Of a stretch of DNA of 64,000 nucleotides, positions 2,929 to 39,869 are shown piece after piece (position 1 is the first letter of the stretch; every line of letters starts with the position of its first letter). The stretch is from a virus. Its lineage: Duplodnaviria > Caudoviricetes. Under the pieces are notes generated by a model. That model did no database searches and was not told the DNA's origin. It saw only the letters and a program-made list of their open reading frames with translations. The position numbers and the translations under genes are program-made. The stretch spans positions 1 through 64,000 of the IMG/VR virus record IMGVR_UViG_3300005077_000712; one strand, given 5' to 3'.

Positions 2929-3056
2929 TCAATTTAATTATTTCTTCTATTGAAAGAAGATGTTTTAAAAAACTTATAGGTAAATCTTTAATATTAGTAT
3001 GTTTTGCAACCTCCATCTTATCAAAGATAAAAACTTCTGTTTTTTCTGTTTTTATA

Positions 3057-3416
3057 TTATGAATTTTCAACTTTCAATACATCTCTAATAATACCTTCAA
3101 AAACTTGTTTAGGAAAAGCTCCTGAAGCCATTTGTGGATTTTCATTCATAGGGATTATTAAAAAACTTGGTATTCCTTGTATTCCAAATAATTTTGCAAG
3201 TTCTTGTTCTTTTTCTGTGTTAATTTTGTAAATATCAATTTTACCTTCATATTCTTTTGAAAGTTGTTCAAGTATAGGTGATACCATTTTGCATGGTCCA
3301 CACCAATCTGCATAAAAATCAATTATAGCAGGTTTATCACCTTTAAAAGTAAATTCTTCATTATTTTCATAATCAAATACTTTTTCTATAAAAGTTTCTT
3401 TTGTTAAATTTTCCAT
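3057..3416 (-). CDS. trxA: Thioredoxin
   Basis: IDFYADWCGPCK active site; start moved to MENL, which has an AGAGG SD upstream. Confidence 0.92.
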   Translation of the reverse strand: MENLTKETFIEKVFDYENNEEFTFKGDKPAIIDFYADWCGPCKMVSPILEQLSKEYEGKIDIYKINTEKEQELAKLFGIQGIPSFLIIPMNENPQMASGAFPKQVFEGIIRDVLKVENS

Positions 3417-3536: not shown

Positions 3537-3540
3537 TAAT

Positions 3541-3738
3541 ATGGGGCTTCCACCCATTGCGATTATTAAGTCATGATCTTAATTTCTCTCTGGACCTCGT
3601 TCTTGAGTTCCCACCAAACAAGGACTCCCACCTGTTGTAGAATTAACTTGTACTTCATTAATTCCTCTGCTACTCAGTTAGCCCTTTCACTAATAACCTC
3701 CTAAAGTGTGCTTGTAAACAGAGGCATAGCAGGTCAAT
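3541..3738 (-). ncRNA. Unclassified structured RNA between two tRNAs
   Basis: GC-richer ORF-free 200 nt with complementary segments (ctgcta/tagcag, cctctg/cagagg, gacct/aggtc) and several hairpins. Confidence 0.45.
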
Positions 3739-3739
3739 T

Positions 3740-3814
3740 TGCATCCTGATGGGATCGAACCATCTACATTATAATTATGAATTATAGGCTTTAAACCAAA
3801 TGAGCTAAGAATGC
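3740..3814 (-). tRNA. tRNA-Met/Ile2(CAT)
   Basis: GCATTCT/AGGATGC acceptor, TATAA-TTCATAA-TTATA anticodon arm, TTCGATC T loop. Confidence 0.85.
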
Positions 3815-5685: not shown

Positions 5686-5967
5686 TTAAGAAAGTTGATT
5701 ATCATTAACGTCTTTAATTTCAAAATCATCATCAAACTTCAAACGTACTAAAAATCCTTTTGCTGATATTACTTTTGCTTTTTTTCCAACATGAGATTTA
5801 AGTTCTTTAAATTGTTCTGCATTAAATCCCCAATCTTCAGCAGAACCTTGTACTTTTTTTAAGGTAACAATATCACCCTTTTTAAATTTTCCTTCAGCTT
5901 CTTTGCCAGTAGAATTTGAATCAGCATCTAATACTTTTTCAAGGTATTGTGTAAATAATGTAGACAT
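5686..5967 (-). CDS. Hypothetical protein with N-terminal YLEK motif and SH3/KOW-like domain
   Basis: MSTLFTQYLEKVL...FKKGDIVTLK; GGAGG SD. Confidence 0.65.
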   Translation of the reverse strand: MSTLFTQYLEKVLDADSNSTGKEAEGKFKKGDIVTLKKVQGSAEDWGFNAEQFKELKSHVGKKAKVISAKGFLVRLKFDDDFEIKDVNDNQLS

Positions 5968-6063
5968 AGTTTTCCTCCATAAATAAATTATATTATTATA
6001 TAATATATGGGAAACAATAAATTATCTAATTTTTATATTAAAACGCTTTTAAGCGATATTTTT

Positions 6064-6395
6064 TGGTGGATCTGGGGAGTTCTGCCACTCCCGTCTTGCA
6101 ATCCTTTATTTATAATCTTCTACACGGTTAGACAATTTAAGTTTGTCATTCTTTACGACTTTTGTTTGTCTCCACCAAACAGTTTTTAAAGAACTGATAA
6201 ACTTTTTTTGAAACAATACTTATTTTATTTTACAGAGTAATAAGTTAACTCCGATAGGTTTGACTAAGCAGCCATCCCTACAGGTGCTTGATAAGCTACA
6301 TTTTTTGCATTTAGTTTTTTTGCGTTCTTTAAGGTGACTACGCTTCACCCCGTGCTAATTATAAACTCAGATCCAATCGATACTAATTCAGACCC
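6064..6395 (-). ncRNA. ssrA: tmRNA; tag (A)AKNVAYQAPVGMAA*
   Basis: 5' GGGTCTG pairs with 3' CAGATCC-ACCA (G3.U); resume context CTAAAT-GCA; tag ORF 6308-6264 ends AA-TAG. Confidence 0.92.
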
Positions 6396-6802: not shown

Positions 6803-7142
6803 TAGCTCTGATGGGATTTGAACCCATACTTGAGGGATTTTCTTACCACTATAGTTTTCACTACCATTATGTTTGTGGTCTGGACTTTCTCTTCATCATA
6901 TCATTTGACTTAGATGGACTCCCGTTAAGTCTCTGCACGTTTCTTTTAATAAAAAAGATTTCGCTCAGGATTGCCATCATCATTACATGTTAAGGTTCCC
7001 CTGAATTTGAGAGTCTCCACTTAATATATTTCTATATTAAGGCTCAATTTTTAATGCTTACTATTTTTACCTCTAATTACAAAAAAATAATAAACATTAT
7101 AGAAAAAAGTCCCTTGCCTCTACCAGATTGGGCTACAGAGCC
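6803..7142 (-). tRNA. tRNA-Leu(TAA) split by a group I intron (exons 7142-7107 and 6841-6803)
   Basis: Exon 1 GGCTCTG...AGGGACTT joined to exon 2 AAAATCCCT...CAGAGCT-A restores loop CTTAAAA. Confidence 0.85.
6842..7106 (-). mobile_element. Group I intron (IC3, trnL-UAA type), 265 nt
   Basis: IGS AATTGAGCC; P AAATTCAGGGGAACCT; Q AATCCTGAGC; R GTGCAGAGACT; S AAGAGAAAGTCC; terminal G before AAAA. Confidence 0.9.
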
Positions 7143-7290
7143 ATGTTAGATGAAAAAATTAAAATCTCCATAATTTAAATTTTTAAATATCAACCGAGTC
7201 TTTCCTTATTCAAGAATGATTCATGCTGACTTATGGAGCGTGAATATTGTTAATCTACCTCATAACTTTACCTCCTTTATTAAAATAATG

Positions 7291-7373
7291 AGCCTAGTAC
7301 TGGAGTCGAACCAGTGTGGAATTACTTCTACGGCTTACAAAACCGTCCCAATCGACCTCTATGGGAACTAGGC
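7291..7373 (-). tRNA. tRNA with TGT (Thr) anticodon and long variable arm
   Basis: GCCTAGT/ACTAGGC-U73; ACGGT-TTTGTAA-GCCGT arm; 14-nt variable region AGAAGTAATTCCAC. Confidence 0.7.
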
Positions 7374-8754: not shown

Positions 8755-9000
8755 TTATTTTCCCATATTTAATATTGGAAATTTATCAACATAACTTTCA
8801 GTTTTTATAATTTCATTATCATTTTCATCAAATAAAATAAAATTCTTTTGATCTCCAATTCTTCTAAAATAATCATTACCACCATCAACAGCTATAGCAC
8901 CACATTTACATTCAACAAAATCATGTCTATATATTGACTCAATAACCGTACCACATAATTTACACTTTGCTTTATTTTTTATCATAAATATGTCCACCAT
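8755..9000 (-). CDS. Small Zn-binding protein
   Basis: CKLC...RHDFVECKCGAIAVDGG. Confidence 0.7.
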   Translation of the reverse strand: MVDIFMIKNKAKCKLCGTVIESIYRHDFVECKCGAIAVDGGNDYFRRIGDQKNFILFDENDNEIIKTESYVDKFPILNMGK

Positions 9001-10592
9001 CTCCCATTATGTTGAGGATAATCTAAACATTCCCAAAAACATCCTTTATTAAATCCTTTATTCCATACATGCCAATGGCCAAAATACCATCTCTTTGGTT
9101 GAAATTCTTTAAGAATCATAGATAACCAAATTCTTGATGGATCATCATACTTGTCATATCTATTATTAAGAACACCAAATTCCATAGGACATGTATGACT
9201 AAATACAATATCAATACCATCAAAATTTTTTATGTTATTTACAGAAGTCTCATAATCCTTTTCAGTAATTAACTCTTCAGGAAACCAATCAAACCCTGGA
9301 GTCCTGTATTTTTTATCTATACTCTCAGCACCACCAAGAAATAAACATCTTAAATCATTTATAACCTTTACAGTACCTCTTGGCATATAAATTACATTAG
9401 GCAGTAATTCATCTGTTGTTCTTGCATTGAGAGATGCAAAACAATTTCCAGTAAAAGCTACCTTTCCATCATATCGAGTTATAAGTGTACCCAACGGCAT
9501 AGTAAAACAAAATACATCATCGTTATAATTTATTATTTTACTATTTACTTTATAATTTTTTATAATATCTGAAATAGATATTTTATATATATTTTTTTTC
9601 CCAAAAGCATTTATATGTTGTTTACTTTGTTTTATAGTACAAATTTTATTAGAAGTTATACATAATTCTTGAATTATGTCTGCATCACTTTTATTTATAG
9701 TTGAAAATGTAATTCTATTATTAGAACATCTATGTCCATCTGTAAATTCTAATTCTGATAAAACTATATGTTTTTGTTCAATACTTAATTCTCTAAAAAA
9801 ATTAGGAAAACATTTTTTGGAGTTTAACATTTCATAAATTTTTCTTGAATAATCTCCATAAATTCTTATATAAAAAGGCTGTAATTTATTAAATTTTCCT
9901 TTCTTACACTCTTTAATTGTAAAGGGGAAATTTATATTATTAAGTAATTTAGTTAATCTAACTATTTTATCTTGCCTACTTAATTTAAATTGTATTCTTA
10001 TTTTTTTTGAGTTTGGTTTATAAATAGAATTATCCACAATAGTTGAATCACATACTACCCATACTAATAATCTAAGTAATTCATCTGAAATATTATATTT
10101 ATTATTACAAAATCCCGTTAATCTAAAATCATTTTCATTAATTTGTTTTTGTATTATTTCACTTGCTTTTATTTTATTATTATTTATAATAATATTATGG
10201 CCTAAAGTTACCATCTGTTTTGTATGAAATGATTCAATACTAATAATATCTTTTGCATATTTCTTAATATAATTTATTGGCTTACTATAAGATATTTCTC
10301 CTGTATTAATTTCAAACTGTGCTATTAAATCTTCATTAGTTATAAATTCAATATCTTTCCATCCATCTTTTGTTAAAACATCAGAACCTTTAGCTATACA
10401 TTCGTGATTTCCATCAAGCCATAAAACTTTAGTATCATGTGCTTTTATAAGCCCTTCAACCCAAGATGTTTGATGGGGCCAAAAACCAAAATCCCCAAGT
10501 GCTATTAAATACTCAGGATTTTGCTTATTTATTAATTTATTTAAGTGATAAAACTCCCCATGCAAATCACCACATATTGTTACTTTTCCCAT
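8982..10592 (-). CDS. Metallophosphoesterase containing an intein
   Basis: Start moved to MGKVTICGDLHG because the upstream in-frame part overlaps tRNA-Glu; LGDFG, GNHE, SHT and GHWH motifs. Confidence 0.85.
   Translation of the reverse strand: MGKVTICGDLHGEFYHLNKLINKQNPEYLIALGDFGFWPHQTSWVEGLIKAHDTKVLWLDGNHECIAKGSDVLTKDGWKDIEFITNEDLIAQFEINTGEISYSKPINYIKKYAKDIISIESFHTKQMVTLGHNIIINNNKIKASEIIQKQINENDFRLTGFCNNKYNISDELLRLLVWVVCDSTIVDNSIYKPNSKKIRIQFKLSRQDKIVRLTKLLNNINFPFTIKECKKGKFNKLQPFYIRIYGDYSRKIYEMLNSKKCFPNFFRELSIEQKHIVLSELEFTDGHRCSNNRITFSTINKSDADIIQELCITSNKICTIKQSKQHINAFGKKNIYKISISDIIKNYKVNSKIINYNDDVFCFTMPLGTLITRYDGKVAFTGNCFASLNARTTDELLPNVIYMPRGTVKVINDLRCLFLGGAESIDKKYRTPGFDWFPEELITEKDYETSVNNIKNFDGIDIVFSHTCPMEFGVLNNRYDKYDDPSRIWLSMILKEFQPKRWYFGHWHVWNKGFNKGCFWECLDYPQHNGRWWTYL
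9444..10400 (-). mobile_element. Intein (319 aa) with LAGLIDADG-like domain
   Basis: GNHE|CIAKGSDVLTKDGW...RYDGKVAFTGN|C; central LLVWVVCDS and LEFTDGH. Confidence 0.85.
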
Positions 10593-10612
10593 TTTAATAC
10601 TCTCTATTTTAT

Positions 10613-10684
10613 TAGGGCCATGGAGAATCGAACTCCAACTAACGGGCTGAAAACCCGTTGTACTAACCATTATACGATGACCCC
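10613..10684 (-). tRNA. tRNA-Glu(TTC)
   Basis: GGGGTCA/TGGCCCT acceptor; ACGGG-TTTTCAG-CCCGT arm. Confidence 0.88.
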
Positions 10685-10687
10685 ATA

Positions 10688-10821
10688 TGGGGGATAGATG
10701 GGACTTGAACCCATAACCTTCCGATTACAATTCGATGAAATGTCTTCTACCGCTATTTCTATTAGAAATAGAATTTTAAGAATCCATTTTTTTAACACTC
10801 TACCGTTGAGCTACTATCCCC
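10688..10821 (-). ncRNA. tRNA-like RNA with an inserted Y-RNA-type helix (element C)
   Basis: GGGGATAG/CTATCCCC-CA acceptor, normal D and T arms; about 58-nt insert between D and anticodon-like arm carrying TAGCGGT...CATC. Confidence 0.7.
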
Positions 10822-10826
10822 ATATT

Positions 10827-10918
10827 AAAAAATTACATGAATAATTAATAACAATTTTTTTTCTTTTTACCAAATTGTAGTTGATGTAACTGTTATAACC
10901 GCTATGTAATCATTTTTT
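10827..10918 (-). ncRNA. Putative Y-like RNA (element B)
   Basis: Terminal stem ATTACAT/ATGTAAT, AGCGGT internal loop, ATAACAGTT/AATTGTTAT helix, ACATC; downstream of Ro60. Confidence 0.65.
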
Positions 10919-10926
10919 CCTTAATA

Positions 10927-11024
10927 AAAATGATGGTGTGATTTTACGAATCAAGTTTTTTGTTCAGTAGCCAAAGTTTAAATTTGATTTGAAGTAACTT
11001 AATTCACCGCTACACCATCATTTT
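10927..11024 (-). ncRNA. Putative Y-like RNA (element A)
   Basis: 13-bp terminal stem AAAATGATGGTGT/ACACCATCATTTT, AGCGGT loop, GAATTAAGTT/AACTTGATTC helix, ACTTC; 11 nt from the Ro60 stop. Confidence 0.7.
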
Positions 11025-11035
11025 ACTATTTTATT

Positions 11036-12655
11036 CTATTGTTTGTCAACTCGTTTTTCTATTTCATCCCAAGTATTTATAATTTTTTCTGCAAATACAG
11101 CTTCTTTACCTGTCCAACCTGTTAAAATTGCACCTCTATAAATATTTTCAGGAAGTATAGAGTTATTATACCCTGCTGTTTGAACAGAAAATACATTAAC
11201 TTTTCTATTAACTGTATTTCTATATTCTTCAACAAGTTTTAATACATTTATGTTTCTAATATTAACTATATAATTTCTATAGTCATCTGTATTTAAACCA
11301 TATAATCCACCATGACCAGCTTGCATATCTGAATAAATAAATATATTATCATAATGAGTTTTATTTTTTAGAGCATCTCTAAAAAATATCCATATTCCGT
11401 TTTCAGTTGAACCACCTACATATTTAGGTGCATTTATACTATAAGTTTTATTAGCTGTATTAAGTTGAGTTAAAACTCCATTTCTTTTAGAAACAGAAAT
11501 TATTTCAAGTTTATCTCCAAAATATCCAACATAACCTTCATCAGAATTTATAGCTGTCATAAAACTTGATAAATTATTAATCTCTGCATTTACAACAGTT
11601 CCATATTCACTTGTTAATGCACCCCAAGCTGAACCCGAATTATCAGAAAGACAAATAGTTTTTCCTTTTAGTTTAGGAAAGTTATTCATTGCAATATCAA
11701 TACATTCTTCAAGAGTATCAAGAATTATTGCTTTATGATTAATATTTTCTTTTTCTATATATTTAAAAGCAGTATAGTATCTGAATGGAAATTGTTTTCC
11801 ATAAGGTACACCATTTTTTAAATATTCACAAACTTCTTTTGCAATTTCAACATCTTCAATTTCTGAAAAAATTCCTCTGAGATTACGAAGTAAAGCCATG
11901 TGCGGGACTTTAATAGTATTAAGAATTTCCTTCCAAGTTTTGCCTGCTGATTTAAGTCTTTCCCAAGTAGAATTTTCATCTTCAAGTTCAAGAACTCCTT
12001 GTGATTTCATAAGTTCATTTATTACATCTGAATGAGCATGAGATATACGAACTAAGTCACGAATCATACCTTTAGTTTGATATTTACTAATTTGATATTT
12101 ATTAAAAGTTTGAAGTTTTTCTGCCCAAGATCTTTTTACAATATTAGGCAAATTATTCTTTGAACCTTTTAAATACATATAGTATTCAAACTGATTAGTA
12201 ATATCATCAGGACGTAAAACTATTTTCTTTCCTATTTCTCTCATGAAATAAGGATTTGTTTCATTAAACTTTACACGATCTTTATGAAGCGCTGCTCTGA
12301 TAAATATAACAGCAGGATTCATACGCATAAGATAATTGTTTCTTAAATCAGATGCAAATTCGATAGTTGCTTTGAAATCATAATCAAAGGCATTATCAAT
12401 TGCTTCTGTCATTATATCAACAGTAGAAGTTTTAGGTTCTGAATATCCCATTTTACCTAATGTTGATTTAGAGCCATCTACACCTTTTCTATAGTAAGAA
12501 GGTTCACCAAAAATACCTGAAGCTAATACAATTTTAAGAGTATCTATCGGATTAAGTTTATAACTTGTTCCACCCATAAAATTAGTTACTACTTCTCCGC
12601 TATGCTTTCTAACTGTTGCTGTAGTTTTAAAAGCATGTGTTTTCAATCTGCTCAT
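11036..12655 (-). CDS. Ro60/TROVE-domain RNA-binding protein (Rsr-like)
   Basis: TROVE motifs (MRMNPA, MALLRNL, FPFRY) and vWA MIDAS DNSGS...SDMQ. Confidence 0.9.
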   Translation of the reverse strand: MSRLKTHAFKTTATVRKHSGEVVTNFMGGTSYKLNPIDTLKIVLASGIFGEPSYYRKGVDGSKSTLGKMGYSEPKTSTVDIMTEAIDNAFDYDFKATIEFASDLRNNYLMRMNPAVIFIRAALHKDRVKFNETNPYFMREIGKKIVLRPDDITNQFEYYMYLKGSKNNLPNIVKRSWAEKLQTFNKYQISKYQTKGMIRDLVRISHAHSDVINELMKSQGVLELEDENSTWERLKSAGKTWKEILNTIKVPHMALLRNLRGIFSEIEDVEIAKEVCEYLKNGVPYGKQFPFRYYTAFKYIEKENINHKAIILDTLEECIDIAMNNFPKLKGKTICLSDNSGSAWGALTSEYGTVVNAEINNLSSFMTAINSDEGYVGYFGDKLEIISVSKRNGVLTQLNTANKTYSINAPKYVGGSTENGIWIFFRDALKNKTHYDNIFIYSDMQAGHGGLYGLNTDDYRNYIVNIRNINVLKLVEEYRNTVNRKVNVFSVQTAGYNNSILPENIYRGAILTGWTGKEAVFAEKIINTWDEIEKRVDKQ

Positions 12656-12851
12656 TTTAATCCTCTTTACTTAAATTATTAGTCAAATAGCCAAGATCAC
12701 ATAAATATTTAAAATTTTTAAAACTTATTAGATTATATTGAACCCAATTATAAATTATATCTATATGATGATCTTTAGAGACTGAATTTAATTTTTTAAT
12801 TATATGATGTTTAGTTAATCTTTTTTCCATTTTATATTTCCTTTGTTAATG

Positions 12852-12923
12852 CGGAGTTACGGGGAATTGAACCCCGATCCAGTGATAGACAGTCACCGAT
12901 AATAGCCTTTATAAGATAACTCC
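12852..12923 (-). tRNA. tRNA-Asp(GTC)
   Basis: GGAGTTA/TAACTCC-G73; loop CTGTCTA. Confidence 0.88.
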
Positions 12924-12967
12924 ATAATTAATTTACATCTTTTTATGTATTCTTTTTTTAAATCATT

Positions 12968-13034
12968 TGAAACCGATGGGACTCGAACCCATATCAGACC
13001 TTTAGATCTGCTCTAACCATTGAGCTACGATTTC
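12968..13034 (-). ncRNA. tRNA-like RNA with a 4-nt anticodon loop
   Basis: Canonical acceptor, D (GCTC-AATGGTTA-GAGC) and T arms, but AGATC-TAAA-GGTCT in place of a 7-nt loop. Confidence 0.75.
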
Positions 13035-28801: not shown

Positions 28802-29116
28802 TTAAAATATAATTTTTGTTATTACTATCCAAGCTATAAAAAAAGTAATAATATTTCCTAAAATTTCTATAAAATCCATTTGTTCTTCTGTATATTTTGA
28901 GGCATTATAAAATACAAAAGATGAATTTATTAATGAAGTAGCTCCAAGCATTTTTTTAAAGAACATTAATGCTAATGCTGTAGAATAATTAATTAAAAGC
29001 AATGTTGAAGAAATATATGGGGCTATACAATTCCACATATCTTGCAAAAACATTGCATTTAAAAAAAGTGAACCAAAACTCATTATTATACCAAATATTT
29101 TTAAACCTTTATTCAT
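28802..29116 (-). CDS. Hypothetical membrane protein
   Basis: Three hydrophobic segments. Confidence 0.7.
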   Translation of the reverse strand: MNKGLKIFGIIMSFGSLFLNAMFLQDMWNCIAPYISSTLLLINYSTALALMFFKKMLGATSLINSSFVFYNASKYTEEQMDFIEILGNIITFFIAWIVITKIIF

Positions 29117-30210
29117 AAAACTTCTTCCCCCATAAAAAATATTTTACCTTTATACTTTTCTTTAAAATGAACTTTTAACTGTTTTTTTATAACAGGTAAA
29201 ATTTCTTTACCATCAAGTAGAATAAACATAATTGAACTTTCTTTTTCTTGTGCTATTTGAGTTCTTAATTCAGTTCTTTTATATTTTTTCTTTAATTCTT
29301 CTAATTTAATAGATGCCATATTTTCTTTTTCAAGAATCCAATTAGAAAATTCATCTCTGAATCCTTCAAGCATTTTAGCTTTATCAGCATATCCATAAGT
29401 ATAAAGTTCAGAAATATAATCATCAATAGATTCATTGATATATAATTCTAATATATCATTTATAGAAAACTTAGATAAAGCTCTATGTCTATTAAGATAC
29501 CATTGAGTTTTAACTTTATATAGATTACTTCCATCTCCTATTACAAAACCTTCAACCCCTTCAAGAGATTTAGTATATTCTATAAATTCTTTTAAAGTGC
29601 TAAGTTTATCATTAACATTAAAAGTATTATAAAACTGATATTCACCAGTTCTATTATTTCTTATAGCTAATGGTTGTAATTGTTGTTCTTTATATTGTAT
29701 TACAATTGGATTCTCATTATCTAAAAATTCAAATAAAGGAGTTAAACCATCTTTTAATTGAGACATAACTTTTTCTTTAACTTTATCACAAGTTTTTGAA
29801 AATAGTTCAGTTGCTTTTATAGCAACTTCAGAATAAAAACTTTTTTTAGATTTAAAAATAATCTTATCATTAACTAAAACAGGCATAACTAAAGACCCAT
29901 CCCATTTAGTATCAATATAATTAATTTTATTCCAATTAATTAAATATTCTTGAGTTTCAGGACGTTGATTAATATTGAAAAATTTATGATATGGTCTACA
30001 AATAATATCACCAGTAGACATATCAAAAGTTATACCTCTACACTCTCTTGCCAAAGCAGAATTAAAAGTAGTATCAGTTTCAATCATATAAGAAATTATA
30101 CCAAATTCAATACCATCAACTATTTCAGTTTTTAGTTTAATTTCTTTCTTATTCTTTAATATATCATCAAACTGACTTATATTTGTTATTATTGGAAAAT
30201 TCATTTTCAT
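29113..30210 (-). CDS. RNA ligase, T4 Rnl1-like
   Basis: ECRGITF, KFFN, KWDGSL (motif I), EGFVI and KVKT motifs. Confidence 0.85.
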   Translation of the reverse strand: MKMNFPIITNISQFDDILKNKKEIKLKTEIVDGIEFGIISYMIETDTTFNSALARECRGITFDMSTGDIICRPYHKFFNINQRPETQEYLINWNKINYIDTKWDGSLVMPVLVNDKIIFKSKKSFYSEVAIKATELFSKTCDKVKEKVMSQLKDGLTPLFEFLDNENPIVIQYKEQQLQPLAIRNNRTGEYQFYNTFNVNDKLSTLKEFIEYTKSLEGVEGFVIGDGSNLYKVKTQWYLNRHRALSKFSINDILELYINESIDDYISELYTYGYADKAKMLEGFRDEFSNWILEKENMASIKLEELKKKYKRTELRTQIAQEKESSIMFILLDGKEILPVIKKQLKVHFKEKYKGKIFFMGEEVL

Positions 30211-38780: not shown

Positions 38781-39869
38781 TTATTGCTTCTCTTCTTTCA
38801 ATAAAAATTCAGGATTAATTACTTTAAAACTTGTAAATGGAAGATCTATACTCCTAAACACAAGCCCTTCTCTATCTTTAAGAGTATTAAGGACACTCTT
38901 TCCATAACTTTCTTTTACAACACTATTTACATCAGAAAAAATAAATTTTTTTGTATCAATAATTGGAACAAGTTTTAAACCTGTTTCGTCTATAAATCTA
39001 ATAATTTCATTATATTGAAAATATTCATTTTTGTCAATATTAAATACATTAAATATATAGAACTCATTTTCTTTTAACTCATAAGGATTACCTTGAATCT
39101 TTGGCCCAATAATTTCACCTTGAATGGCAATATTCATTTTATGCTTTTTACTATATTCTTTAAGAATAAAATCAATATTATATTTTTTAGCTATATTAAA
39201 ATAAGCATTATCTTTACTATTTGAAAGATTAATATTTCTTGAAGCAAATCCAAATTTACCTTTATTAAACCAAAAAGAAGAACTCATACCATCAAGTTTT
39301 TCAGTTAAATAAAATACCCTGTTCTGATTATTCCATATAATAGATGGAATAGATTGTATTCTTGTTTCATCAGTTTTTCTAATAAATGATGGGAATCCCT
39401 TCTCTTTATCCTCAAAAAATTTAAAATAAATTGTTCTAAATACTTTAAACTTAAAAAAGAATTTAAAGAGTTTAGATTTCTTATGATTAGTATTAAAAGC
39501 TGTTTGTTCTTCAACTAATTGAGGATCATATTTTTTAATACCAAGTATATCAGTAATATCAACACCTTCTTTAGCAACTATTTTAAAGCCACTATCTCTT
39601 AATGATTGAATAGGAATTATAAGTCCCTGACTGATCTGACCACGAAGTTTAATTATTCTAACACGATATTTTCTTTCTTCAAGAAATTCAAACATAGGTA
39701 TTTGAGGGACTATAGAATCAGTCTCCATATAGCAAACAAGATCACCAACATTAAATTCACCTTTTTTAACTACAACTTCCCATCCAAGGACTTGAGCTAC
39801 TTCAATTTTATCTGCTCCTTCAATTGGACGTATTGATATTATTTTTTGTATGGTTGCTAATTGTCTCAT
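38781..39869 (-). CDS. RNA ligase, DRB0094/Rnl5 family
   Basis: N-terminal IRPIEGADKIE OB-like domain; KTDETR, TEKLDG, QGEIIG, EGLV and FKVIN motifs. Confidence 0.88.
   Translation of the reverse strand: MRQLATIQKIISIRPIEGADKIEVAQVLGWEVVVKKGEFNVGDLVCYMETDSIVPQIPMFEFLEERKYRVRIIKLRGQISQGLIIPIQSLRDSGFKIVAKEGVDITDILGIKKYDPQLVEEQTAFNTNHKKSKLFKFFFKFKVFRTIYFKFFEDKEKGFPSFIRKTDETRIQSIPSIIWNNQNRVFYLTEKLDGMSSSFWFNKGKFGFASRNINLSNSKDNAYFNIAKKYNIDFILKEYSKKHKMNIAIQGEIIGPKIQGNPYELKENEFYIFNVFNIDKNEYFQYNEIIRFIDETGLKLVPIIDTKKFIFSDVNSVVKESYGKSVLNTLKDREGLVFRSIDLPFTSFKVINPEFLLKEEKQ

Follow-up and report, generated by a model that had tools for sequence, protein, structure and literature searches.

The Ro60 locus

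The stretch of DNA considered here (the window) is the first 64,000 nt of an 89 kb IMG/VR virus record, IMGVR_UViG_3300005077_000712, for which CheckV gives a completeness of 41%. It contains a gene for Ro60, a ring-shaped RNA quality-control protein, and a cluster of small RNA genes directly downstream of it on the same strand. One of these, referred to below as the chimera, consists of a tRNA body that carries, within its anticodon stem, a module shared with its neighbours but with the strands in permuted order. The features of the locus are collected in Table 1.

Reading along the minus strand from the Ro60 stop codon, the order is a promoter match, two standard-order Y-like RNAs (elements A and B), the chimera, tRNA-Glu and an open reading frame (ORF) for a metallophosphoesterase. 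The chimera lies 215 nt 3' of the Ro60 stop codon, 6 nt beyond the end of element B and 3 nt before tRNA-Glu, which follows its CCA-like end and makes up with it a tandem of the tRNA type. Element A is composed, in order, of a terminal stem, AGCGGU (11006-11011), stem 2, GUUACUUCA, an apical loop, an A-run, stem 2', GUAAAAUC, the returning strand of the terminal stem and a U-run. The promoter match agrees with the consensus at 11 of 12 positions, the highest value in 10300-13000. The metallophosphoesterase, which stands directly 3' of the RNA cluster, has its catalytic halves at aa 3-90 and 395-517, and the insert that splits them has a weak PhoH-like PHROG match.

Table 1. Positions of the chimera, its parts and other features of the window
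Feature	Position	Strand	Basis or remark
Chimera: tRNA-Thr(UGU) body with 59-nt permuted Y module, 134 nt in total	10688..10821	-	Rfam, ARAGORN, covariation
59-nt insert in 5' strand of anticodon stem	10735..10793	-	Sequence; minimum free energy fold retains the module
Lower anticodon stem and loop: CGA, loop AUUGUAA (U33, UGU, A37), UCGGA	10720..10734	-	ARAGORN cloverleaf
Element A, standard-order Y-like RNA	10926..11024	-	Sequence, fold, pattern match
Element B, second standard-order Y-like RNA (AGCGGU 10898-10903)	10827..10918	-	Sequence, fold, pattern match
Ro60 gene (TROVE and vWA), 539 aa	11036..12655	-	Pfam, PHROG, PDB sequence, predicted fold
Sigma-70-like promoter match TTGACA-18-TAAAAT	11020..11049	-	Directly before element A; consensus match alone
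tRNA-Glu(UUC)	10612..10685	-	ARAGORN; Rfam 59.3 bits
Metallophosphoesterase ORF, split by ~300-aa insert	8982..10592	-	Pfam Metallophos E 1.3e-11; phrog_1649 E 2.8e-32
Rnl1-type RNA ligase gene	29113-30210	-	PF09511, E 1e-27
Rnl2-type RNA ligase gene	38781-39869	-	PF09414, E 2e-24

An initial annotation of this DNA had named the neighbouring gene as Ro60, and the protein bears this out at the level of both sequence and fold. It matches the Pfam TROVE family (E 1.4e-9) and, over almost its whole length (aa 18-517), phrog_850, 'RNA-binding protein' (E 3.6e-39), and a sequence search of the PDB found the Ro60 of Thermus phage phiLo (9KOP, E 1e-10; also 9L5Y). An AlphaFold model (predicted local distance difference test, pLDDT, 80; predicted template modelling score, pTM, 0.83) was compared with the PDB by Foldseek, where 9KOP again came top (E 2e-14, template modelling scores 0.65/0.75), followed by 1YVP, 2I91, 9NEN and 2NVO (E ~1e-10 over ~500-600 alignment columns). 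The best structural matches were all full-length Ro60 rings, from phiLo, Xenopus, human and Deinococcus (Rsr), and the C-terminal part of the model matched vWA domains. By its predicted fold, the ORF is a genuine full-length Ro60. Its nearest named relative is gp540 of Bacillus phage G, which is 51% identical, and its closest protein relatives (P0002-P0006) are 65-75% identical. Searches of IMG/VR with P0002, P0003 and P0004, and of GTDB genomes with the window protein, returned no relative above 60%.

The chimera and its permuted module

The tRNA scaffold with free acceptor ends, D and T arms and a hairpin loop AUUGUAA that had been described in the initial annotation is present on the minus strand. 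The acceptor stem has 8 bp (GGGGAUAG/CUAUCCCC) and is followed by CA; it is built from G-1 (10821) and the 5' strand (10814-10820) on one side and the 3' strand (10691-10697) and C73 (10690) on the other, with the CA at 10688-10689. The D arm reads GCUC-AACGGUA-GAGU and the T arm AUGGG-UUCAAGU-CCCAU, and the tRNA residues U8, G18 G19 and U54 U55 C56 are in place, as is the pair G53:C61. The Rfam tRNA model (RF00005) matches 10690-10820 with 43.5 bits against a gathering score of 29, a 74-nt stretch replacing 15 model positions of the anticodon arm in the alignment. ARAGORN made no call on the sequence as it stands. With 59 nt (10793-10735) deleted in silico it returned a perfect 73-nt tRNA-Thr(UGU) with a 7-bp acceptor, a 4-bp D stem, a 5-bp anticodon stem around AUUGUAA, a 5-nt variable loop and a 5-bp T stem, the UU at 10794-10795 completing the five pairs of the anticodon stem. 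The chimera departs from a tRNA in its length, 134 nt as against 70-95 nt, and in the interruption of its anticodon stem after nt 28.

A pair G-1:C73 is the acceptor signature of tRNA-His. It occurs, followed by CA, in both of the Thr(UGU) chimeras found, that of the window (10821/10690) and one in the related contig L018 described below (L018:6051/6181). Among the tRNAs of the examined loci the one most similar to the body of the chimera was the tRNA-His of phage G (75%).

The insert had been placed between the D arm and the anticodon hairpin. An insert is indeed present, but it interrupts the 5' strand of the anticodon stem, where UU / insert / CGA pairs with UCGGA. From 5' to 3' on the minus strand it consists of an A-rich linker (10793-10790), a strand of stem 2 with the sequence AAAUGGAUUCU (10789-10779), UAAAAUUC (10778-10771), a cap hairpin AUUUCU-AAU-AGAAAU (10769-10755), AGCGGU (10754-10749), the opposite strand of stem 2, AGAAGACAUUU (10748-10738), and CAU (10737-10735). 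Nine of 11 positions pair in stem 2 and all six in the cap stem. Each part of the fold first proposed for it, that is a stem, an internal loop with AGCGGU, a helix, an AAU cap and CAUC, was found in the sequence, and the module persists in the minimum free energy (MFE) fold.

Elements A and B and ~100 further modules from related loci share a common grammar, 5'-stem 1/AGCGG(N)/stem 2 (7-10 nt)/(G)UUAC(U/A)UC(A/G)/variable apical part/A-run/stem 2'/WWWWUUC/stem 1'-3'. The order in the insert is A-run/stem 2' (AAAUGGAUUCU)/UAAAAUUC/stem 1' (AUUUCU)/AAU/stem 1 (AGAAAU)/AGCGGU/stem 2 (AGAAGACAUUU)/(UU)UCAUC. All conserved parts of the module are thus present in a strand order permuted relative to A and B, and the comparison upholds the earlier suggestion that the module is that of A and B reversed. 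The helix that bears the ends of the RNA in A and B is closed in the chimera by the AAU triloop, while the tRNA is attached at the side that in A and B faces the variable apical part.

Another tRNA-like gene, of 67 nt, lies ~310 nt upstream of the Ro60 start (12968-13034, minus strand). It scores 51.9 bits with the Rfam tRNA model and escapes ARAGORN; the 'anticodon arm' consists of six pairs, CAGAUC/GGUCUG, with a UAAA tetraloop, and the gene has no variable loop. Judged from these features it is another putative non-decoding tRNA mimic adjoining Ro60. The window as a whole is A+T-rich and its RNA set is typical of a large virulent phage, with ~20 tRNA genes, one transfer-messenger RNA (tmRNA) gene and one group I intron, every one on the minus strand. 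The tmRNA gene (6064-6395, 77.6 bits) encodes its CCA, and the intron (6861-7063; Rfam Intron_gpI, 79 bits) sits between apparent tRNA halves. Besides the chimera, the window has a single Thr(UGU) tRNA, an 84-nt form (7290-7373, minus strand) whose variable arm is 15 nt and whose D loop is 10 nt long.

Recurrence in related and distant phages

The Ro60-linked module was surveyed in ~50 related contigs (phage G, 13+10 IMG/VR loci and 30 metagenome loci; L001-L047). The AGCGG...UUAC(U/A)UC module was found beside the Ro60 genes of these ~50 related phage contigs in ~100 copies, so that the AGCGGT module, whose conservation near TROVE genes had been put forward as a check, is indeed kept there. 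In the whole 89-kb record the pattern AGCGGT-N7-RTTWCWTC has three matches, all no more than 270 nt after the Ro60 stop codon, and the reversed control has none. The letters preceding AGCGG vary, being GU/AU-AGCGGU in the window, YGA-AGCGG in most relatives and in some CCGAAGCGG, which contains CGAA. Scanning IMG/VR for AGCGGT..TWCATCG..GTTCRA gave at least 120 matches, essentially all of them chance matches in coding sequence, and a stricter scan for a D arm together with the module gave one chance match in IMG/VR and none in GTDB genomes.

The closest relative whose DNA was examined is L018, a 42-kb metagenome contig whose Ro60 is 65% identical. As in the window, its modules lie downstream of Ro60, three in standard order being followed by an ORF and then by three chimeras. 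The first, L018_1 (~5714-5847), is read by ARAGORN as tRNA-Arg(UCU) once a 61-nt insert at 25/26 is removed, and the third, L018_3 (6051-6183; Rfam tRNA 52.5 bits), becomes tRNA-Thr(UGU) on removal of a 58-nt insert after nt 29. In L018_2 (~5853-5950) the module stands in place of the entire anticodon arm, and the MFE fold comprises acceptor, D arm, module and T arm; this is exactly the graph of the bacterial YrlA RNAs with the ends moved to the acceptor. A first structural detector for permuted modules was too loose, with 257 matches in control DNA, and detectors constrained by the motif or based on the tRNA took its place. A generic detector of objects 95-200 nt long (7-bp acceptor, U8, GG in the D arm, T arm), run on ~955 kb with both strands counted (~60 Ro60 loci and the window), reported the window element, L018_1 and L018_3 only, and because it reports just these three the background of long-tRNA objects is taken to be about nil. 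Among the Ro60 loci examined for the module family, chimeras are restricted to the lineage of the window and L018; in other lineages the modules lie upstream of Ro60 and no chimera was found within +-4 kb.

MAFFT alignments of the chimeras were structurally inconsistent in stem 2, and pairs were instead counted by a script, one helix at a time. The tRNA parts of the window chimera and L018_3 are 68% identical. Over 21 tRNA stem pairs there are seven double-sided, compensatory changes and two single-sided ones, with no pair broken, and three of the seven compensatory changes fall in the split anticodon stem. Both helices of the module also differ in sequence with pairing preserved, and the Levitt pair 15:48 covaries, being A15:U48 in the window and G15:C48 in L018_3. 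This bears on the suspicion that the chimera is a functionless, dead tRNA gene, disrupted when a Y module next to it was inserted or duplicated by chance. The direct adjacency of two module copies and the silence of ARAGORN are what such an accident would leave, but the design has been kept in L018 with a Ro60 only 65% identical, the compensated and unbroken pairs and the covarying tertiary pair speak for selection on structure, and an analogous design exists in the distant phage crAss001 (below). The pseudogene reading was rejected on covariation and is most improbable; the RNA is very probably real and functional.

Several other structured stretches were noted in these contigs. At L018:5333-5440 a standard-order module encloses a T-arm-like hairpin GCAGG-UUCAUAC-CCUGC, reminiscent of YrlB/YrlA, and between the second and third chimeras (L018:5950-6050) there is a structured stretch with a T-arm-like GCAG-UUCGAUA-CUGC. 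L019:5590-6080 is a G+C-richer, apparently structured region of ~500 nt that follows a tRNA downstream of Ro60, and L186:61-282 holds a possible 222-nt tRNA-like element with GUUACUUCA. In lineages that have no chimeras (L002-L008, L012, L026-L043, at ~3040-3260 or 3540-3760) the first module upstream of Ro60 is ~210 nt long, with UUCUUGA-AGCGGU ... GAUUUC-UCAAGAA around a large conserved interior that has no Rfam match. From their sequence these ~210-nt modules may be the standard-order, YrlA-type tRNA-like RNA of the chimera-less lineages.

The most distant occurrence is in the cultured Bacteroides phage crAss001 (NC_049977), whose TROVE gene is expressed early (PMC8375218). A 900-nt unannotated gap after the TROVE gene gp96 (L179:4104-5010, corresponding to ~95964-96870) contains at least three standard-order modules, UAGUGUA/stem 2/NUUACUUCA ... 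A-run/stem 2'/GUUGUUC, and two tRNA-shaped RNAs (L179:4378-4520 and L179:4633-4770) that are absent from the feature table of the record. Both have full acceptor and T arms and a permuted, hairpin-capped module. The first has its insert after nt 29, within the anticodon stem, with GUA before it and GC after it pairing with GCUAC; the second has no anticodon arm. The TROVE protein is only ~26% identical to the window Ro60, and the chimera design would therefore be old or have arisen more than once. The permutation, described from the outset as the opposite of that in YrlA, is thus met again in L018, where compensatory changes accompany it, and in crAss001, where the loop has another sequence. 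Common to the T4-like/phage G family and crAss001 are UUAC(U/A)UCA right after stem 2, an A-run before stem 2' and a loop ending ...UUC. At the place equivalent to UUAC(U/A)UCA human Y1 presumably has GUUAUCUCA. The 5' loop strand differs, AGCGGU in the window lineage as against UAGUGUA in crAss001, which would be the pattern expected from a protein-contact strand that co-evolves with its protein.

With these relatives in hand it can be asked whether the chimera is simply the precursor of a decoding tRNA-Thr(UGU), from which the 59-nt module is removed like an intron and the exons joined, the excised module perhaps being freed as a small hairpin Y RNA, or in which the module is tolerated and the whole RNA charged to decode ACA. 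Three of the chimeras turn into flawless tRNAs (Thr, Thr and Arg) when the insert is taken out, anticodon loops have stayed canonical and changes in the anticodon stem are compensated, the sole other Thr(UGU) tRNA of the window is the odd form with the long variable arm, and the phage encodes RNA ligases of both the Rnl1 and Rnl2 types. We know, however, of no bacterial or phage pathway that splices an insert from the strand of an anticodon stem. At 59 nt the insert is far below the size of a group I intron, and the Rfam Intron_gpI model matches 6861-7063 and not the chimera; inspection found no bulge-helix-bulge (BHB), the junctions forming a three-way junction with A4 and CAU linkers. Nor do L018_2 and the second crAss001 RNA have an anticodon arm to restore, and what is inserted is the Ro60-linked module rather than arbitrary sequence. 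The whole proposal is unlikely. The readings as a group I or an archaeal BHB intron were rejected, the insert being 59 nt long and in a stem, with no Intron_gpI match and no BHB.

Possible function and relation to known Y RNAs

The reading we lean towards is that the chimera is a Y RNA bound by Ro60, with a complete tRNA, processed at its ends, as effector domain, Ro60 binding and processing being predictions of the model. The chimera would share a transcript with A, B and tRNA-Glu, read from the same strand as Ro60. RNase P would cut its 5' end and thereby free the 3' end of element B, and the tRNA 3'-end enzymes would trim it and complete the CCA; because B and tRNA-Glu lie only 6 and 3 nt away, tRNA-type cleavage would both release B and define the trailer of the chimera. 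[quoted passage not shown] The product is predicted to fold as an L-shaped tRNA with an additional arm leaving from the 5' strand of the anticodon stem, which would present the internal loop AGCGGU // UAAAAUUC between two helices, that is the conserved Ro60-linked module, closed by the 6-bp AAU-capped hairpin where ordinary Y RNAs hold their 5' and 3' ends.

Ro60 would dock on this extra arm. A phage Ro60, that of phiLo, binds Y-like RNAs encoded beside its gene (PMC12135203), and a passage in 10.1101/312249 attributes to Stein et al. 2005 the observation that Ro60 contacts the conserved helix mainly via its 5' strand. The tRNA body would then tether Ro60 to a partner that recognises tRNA, such as a processing, repair or translation factor, much as Yrn1 tethers Rsr to PNPase (PMC4201824) and as has been proposed for YrlA. 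That the RNA is also aminoacylated is improbable.

A narrower version of the tether model specifies the partner. In it the chimera is a bait or decoy whose Thr(UGU) or Arg(UCU) loops draw a host tRNA-cutting nuclease, the cut RNA being captured by Ro60 or passed to the phage ligases. The canonical loops have been kept, an Rnl1-type ligase (the family of the T4 tRNA-repair enzyme) is encoded in the same record, phosphoesterases lie just downstream, the TROVE gene of crAss001 is an early one (PMC8375218) and the RtcB repair operon of bacteria, which is responsive to damaged tRNAs, includes rsr and Y RNA genes (PMC7790460). This support is purely from gene context, and the ligase genes are 18-28 kb distant; no RtcB was found in the 89-kb record. 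No nuclease target is known for Thr(UGU)/Arg(UCU) anticodons in the host, and the crAss001 chimeras have no canonical anticodon loops. We regard the bait as improbable. Going further, the chimera might be a charged, working tRNA with Ro60 as its cargo, carrying threonine, or histidine given G-1:C73, on a UGU anticodon. This is quite improbable. Were it true, EF-Tu or a synthetase would bind the chimera while Ro60 occupies the extra arm, an RNA-surveillance ring would be put on the translation or tRNA-repair machinery, or a Ro60-guarded bait set for host anticodon nucleases, and the chimera would be the first natural tRNA that also acts as a protein tether.

Some caveats must be applied to the model of a Ro60-bound Y RNA with a tRNA as effector, since the following observations weigh against it. 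In the window the module is a conserved internal-loop helix that does not carry the published GNCGAAN0-1G/CGAA motif of the 5' strand (PMC4201824, PMC12135203), CGAA being present in some relatives. The Rfam Y_RNA and YrlA models have no match at the gathering score in the window, nor at E<=10 in 10400-11200, so that of the models with which a check had been suggested the tRNA model matched and the YrlA model did not; in the relatives' loci Rfam likewise finds no Y RNA or YrlA match. Only two of ~60 family loci carry chimeras within +-4 kb. The position of the insert is not fixed (25/26, 28/29 and 29/30), and in three of the four members the anticodon loop is a canonical one of 7 nt (U33, A37) on a perfect stem, features that a pure tether could do without.

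If the Ro60-bound model holds, the consequences reach beyond this phage. Y RNAs are defined by a Ro60-binding stem built from their own two ends, and the chimera would imply that a Ro60 site needs no RNA termini at all; it would also offer a plausible intermediate in an evolutionary passage between tRNA and Y RNA. The partner of the tRNA-like half of bacterial Y RNAs becomes testable, as RNase P, the CCA enzyme, synthetases and EF-Tu might accept the chimeras as substrates, and the presence of the same design in a cultured gut phage, crAss001, with its early TROVE gene makes experiments feasible. Both ARAGORN and the Rfam YrlA model miss this class of RNA.

Engineered 'tRNA scaffold' RNAs offer the nearest artificial parallel, a foreign RNA being placed in the anticodon stem for stable expression while processing and stability come from the arms that are kept (acceptor, D and T). 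In those the passenger helix replaces or extends the anticodon arm, whereas the chimera is natural, conserved and tied to a protein gene. Among natural RNAs the comparison lies first with YrlA of bacteria and mycobacteriophages, in which a Ro60-binding helix is combined with a tRNA-like domain and which its authors called 'circularly permuted tRNAs' (Chen et al. 2014, PMC4201824; Wang et al. 2018, 10.1101/312249). Like YrlA, the chimera lies beside a Ro60 gene and is modular, with a Ro60-type helix and a tRNA-like domain in which the D arm, the T arm and the tertiary pairs of a tRNA are present; the helix exits the tRNA body at the position of the anticodon stem, and L018_2 has the identical graph. 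YrlA, however, has its ends in the Ro60 stem, a loop-closed acceptor and no anticodon loop, whereas the chimera ends in a 7-8-bp acceptor, has its Ro60-type helix capped by a loop and keeps a full anticodon arm. Its motif is AGCGGU and not GNCGAAN0-1G, and the Rfam models are blind to it. An open, CCA-tailed acceptor, as the model predicts for the chimera, is also found in a cleaved, Ro60-bound tRNA-like RNA; there, however, the acceptor is opened by cutting a closed RNA into two pieces, whereas the chimera is one continuous molecule in tRNA order.

Yrn1 of Deinococcus radiodurans (PMC4201824) is likewise a Y RNA whose T and D features resemble those of a tRNA and which may have an anticodon-like arm, but its Ro60 stem is at the acceptor position and holds the ends, whereas that of the chimera is a capped extra arm on the anticodon stem. 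The Yrl1 and Yrl2 RNAs of phiLo, described with phiRo60 (PMC12135203; 9KOP, 9L5Y), are small RNAs beside a phage Ro60 with the stem/internal-loop/stem form of A and B; they differ in being standard-order hairpins with a CGAA loop, with no tRNA body described. A Y RNA in tRNA order is described in no paper found in the literature search, which did not take in two Wolin-lab reviews (PMC10870794, PMC6047535). With the published Y RNA/YrlA family the chimera thus shares its place adjoining a Ro60 gene and the presence of a tRNA-like domain, while its termini lie outside the Ro60-type stem. Because it lacks YrlA-type termini, a match to a curated model and the continuous anticodon stem of a tRNA, the chimera is a variant of the published family rather than a member of it, and it is most aptly regarded as a third topology among the tRNA-like Y RNAs, beside YrlA and Yrn1.
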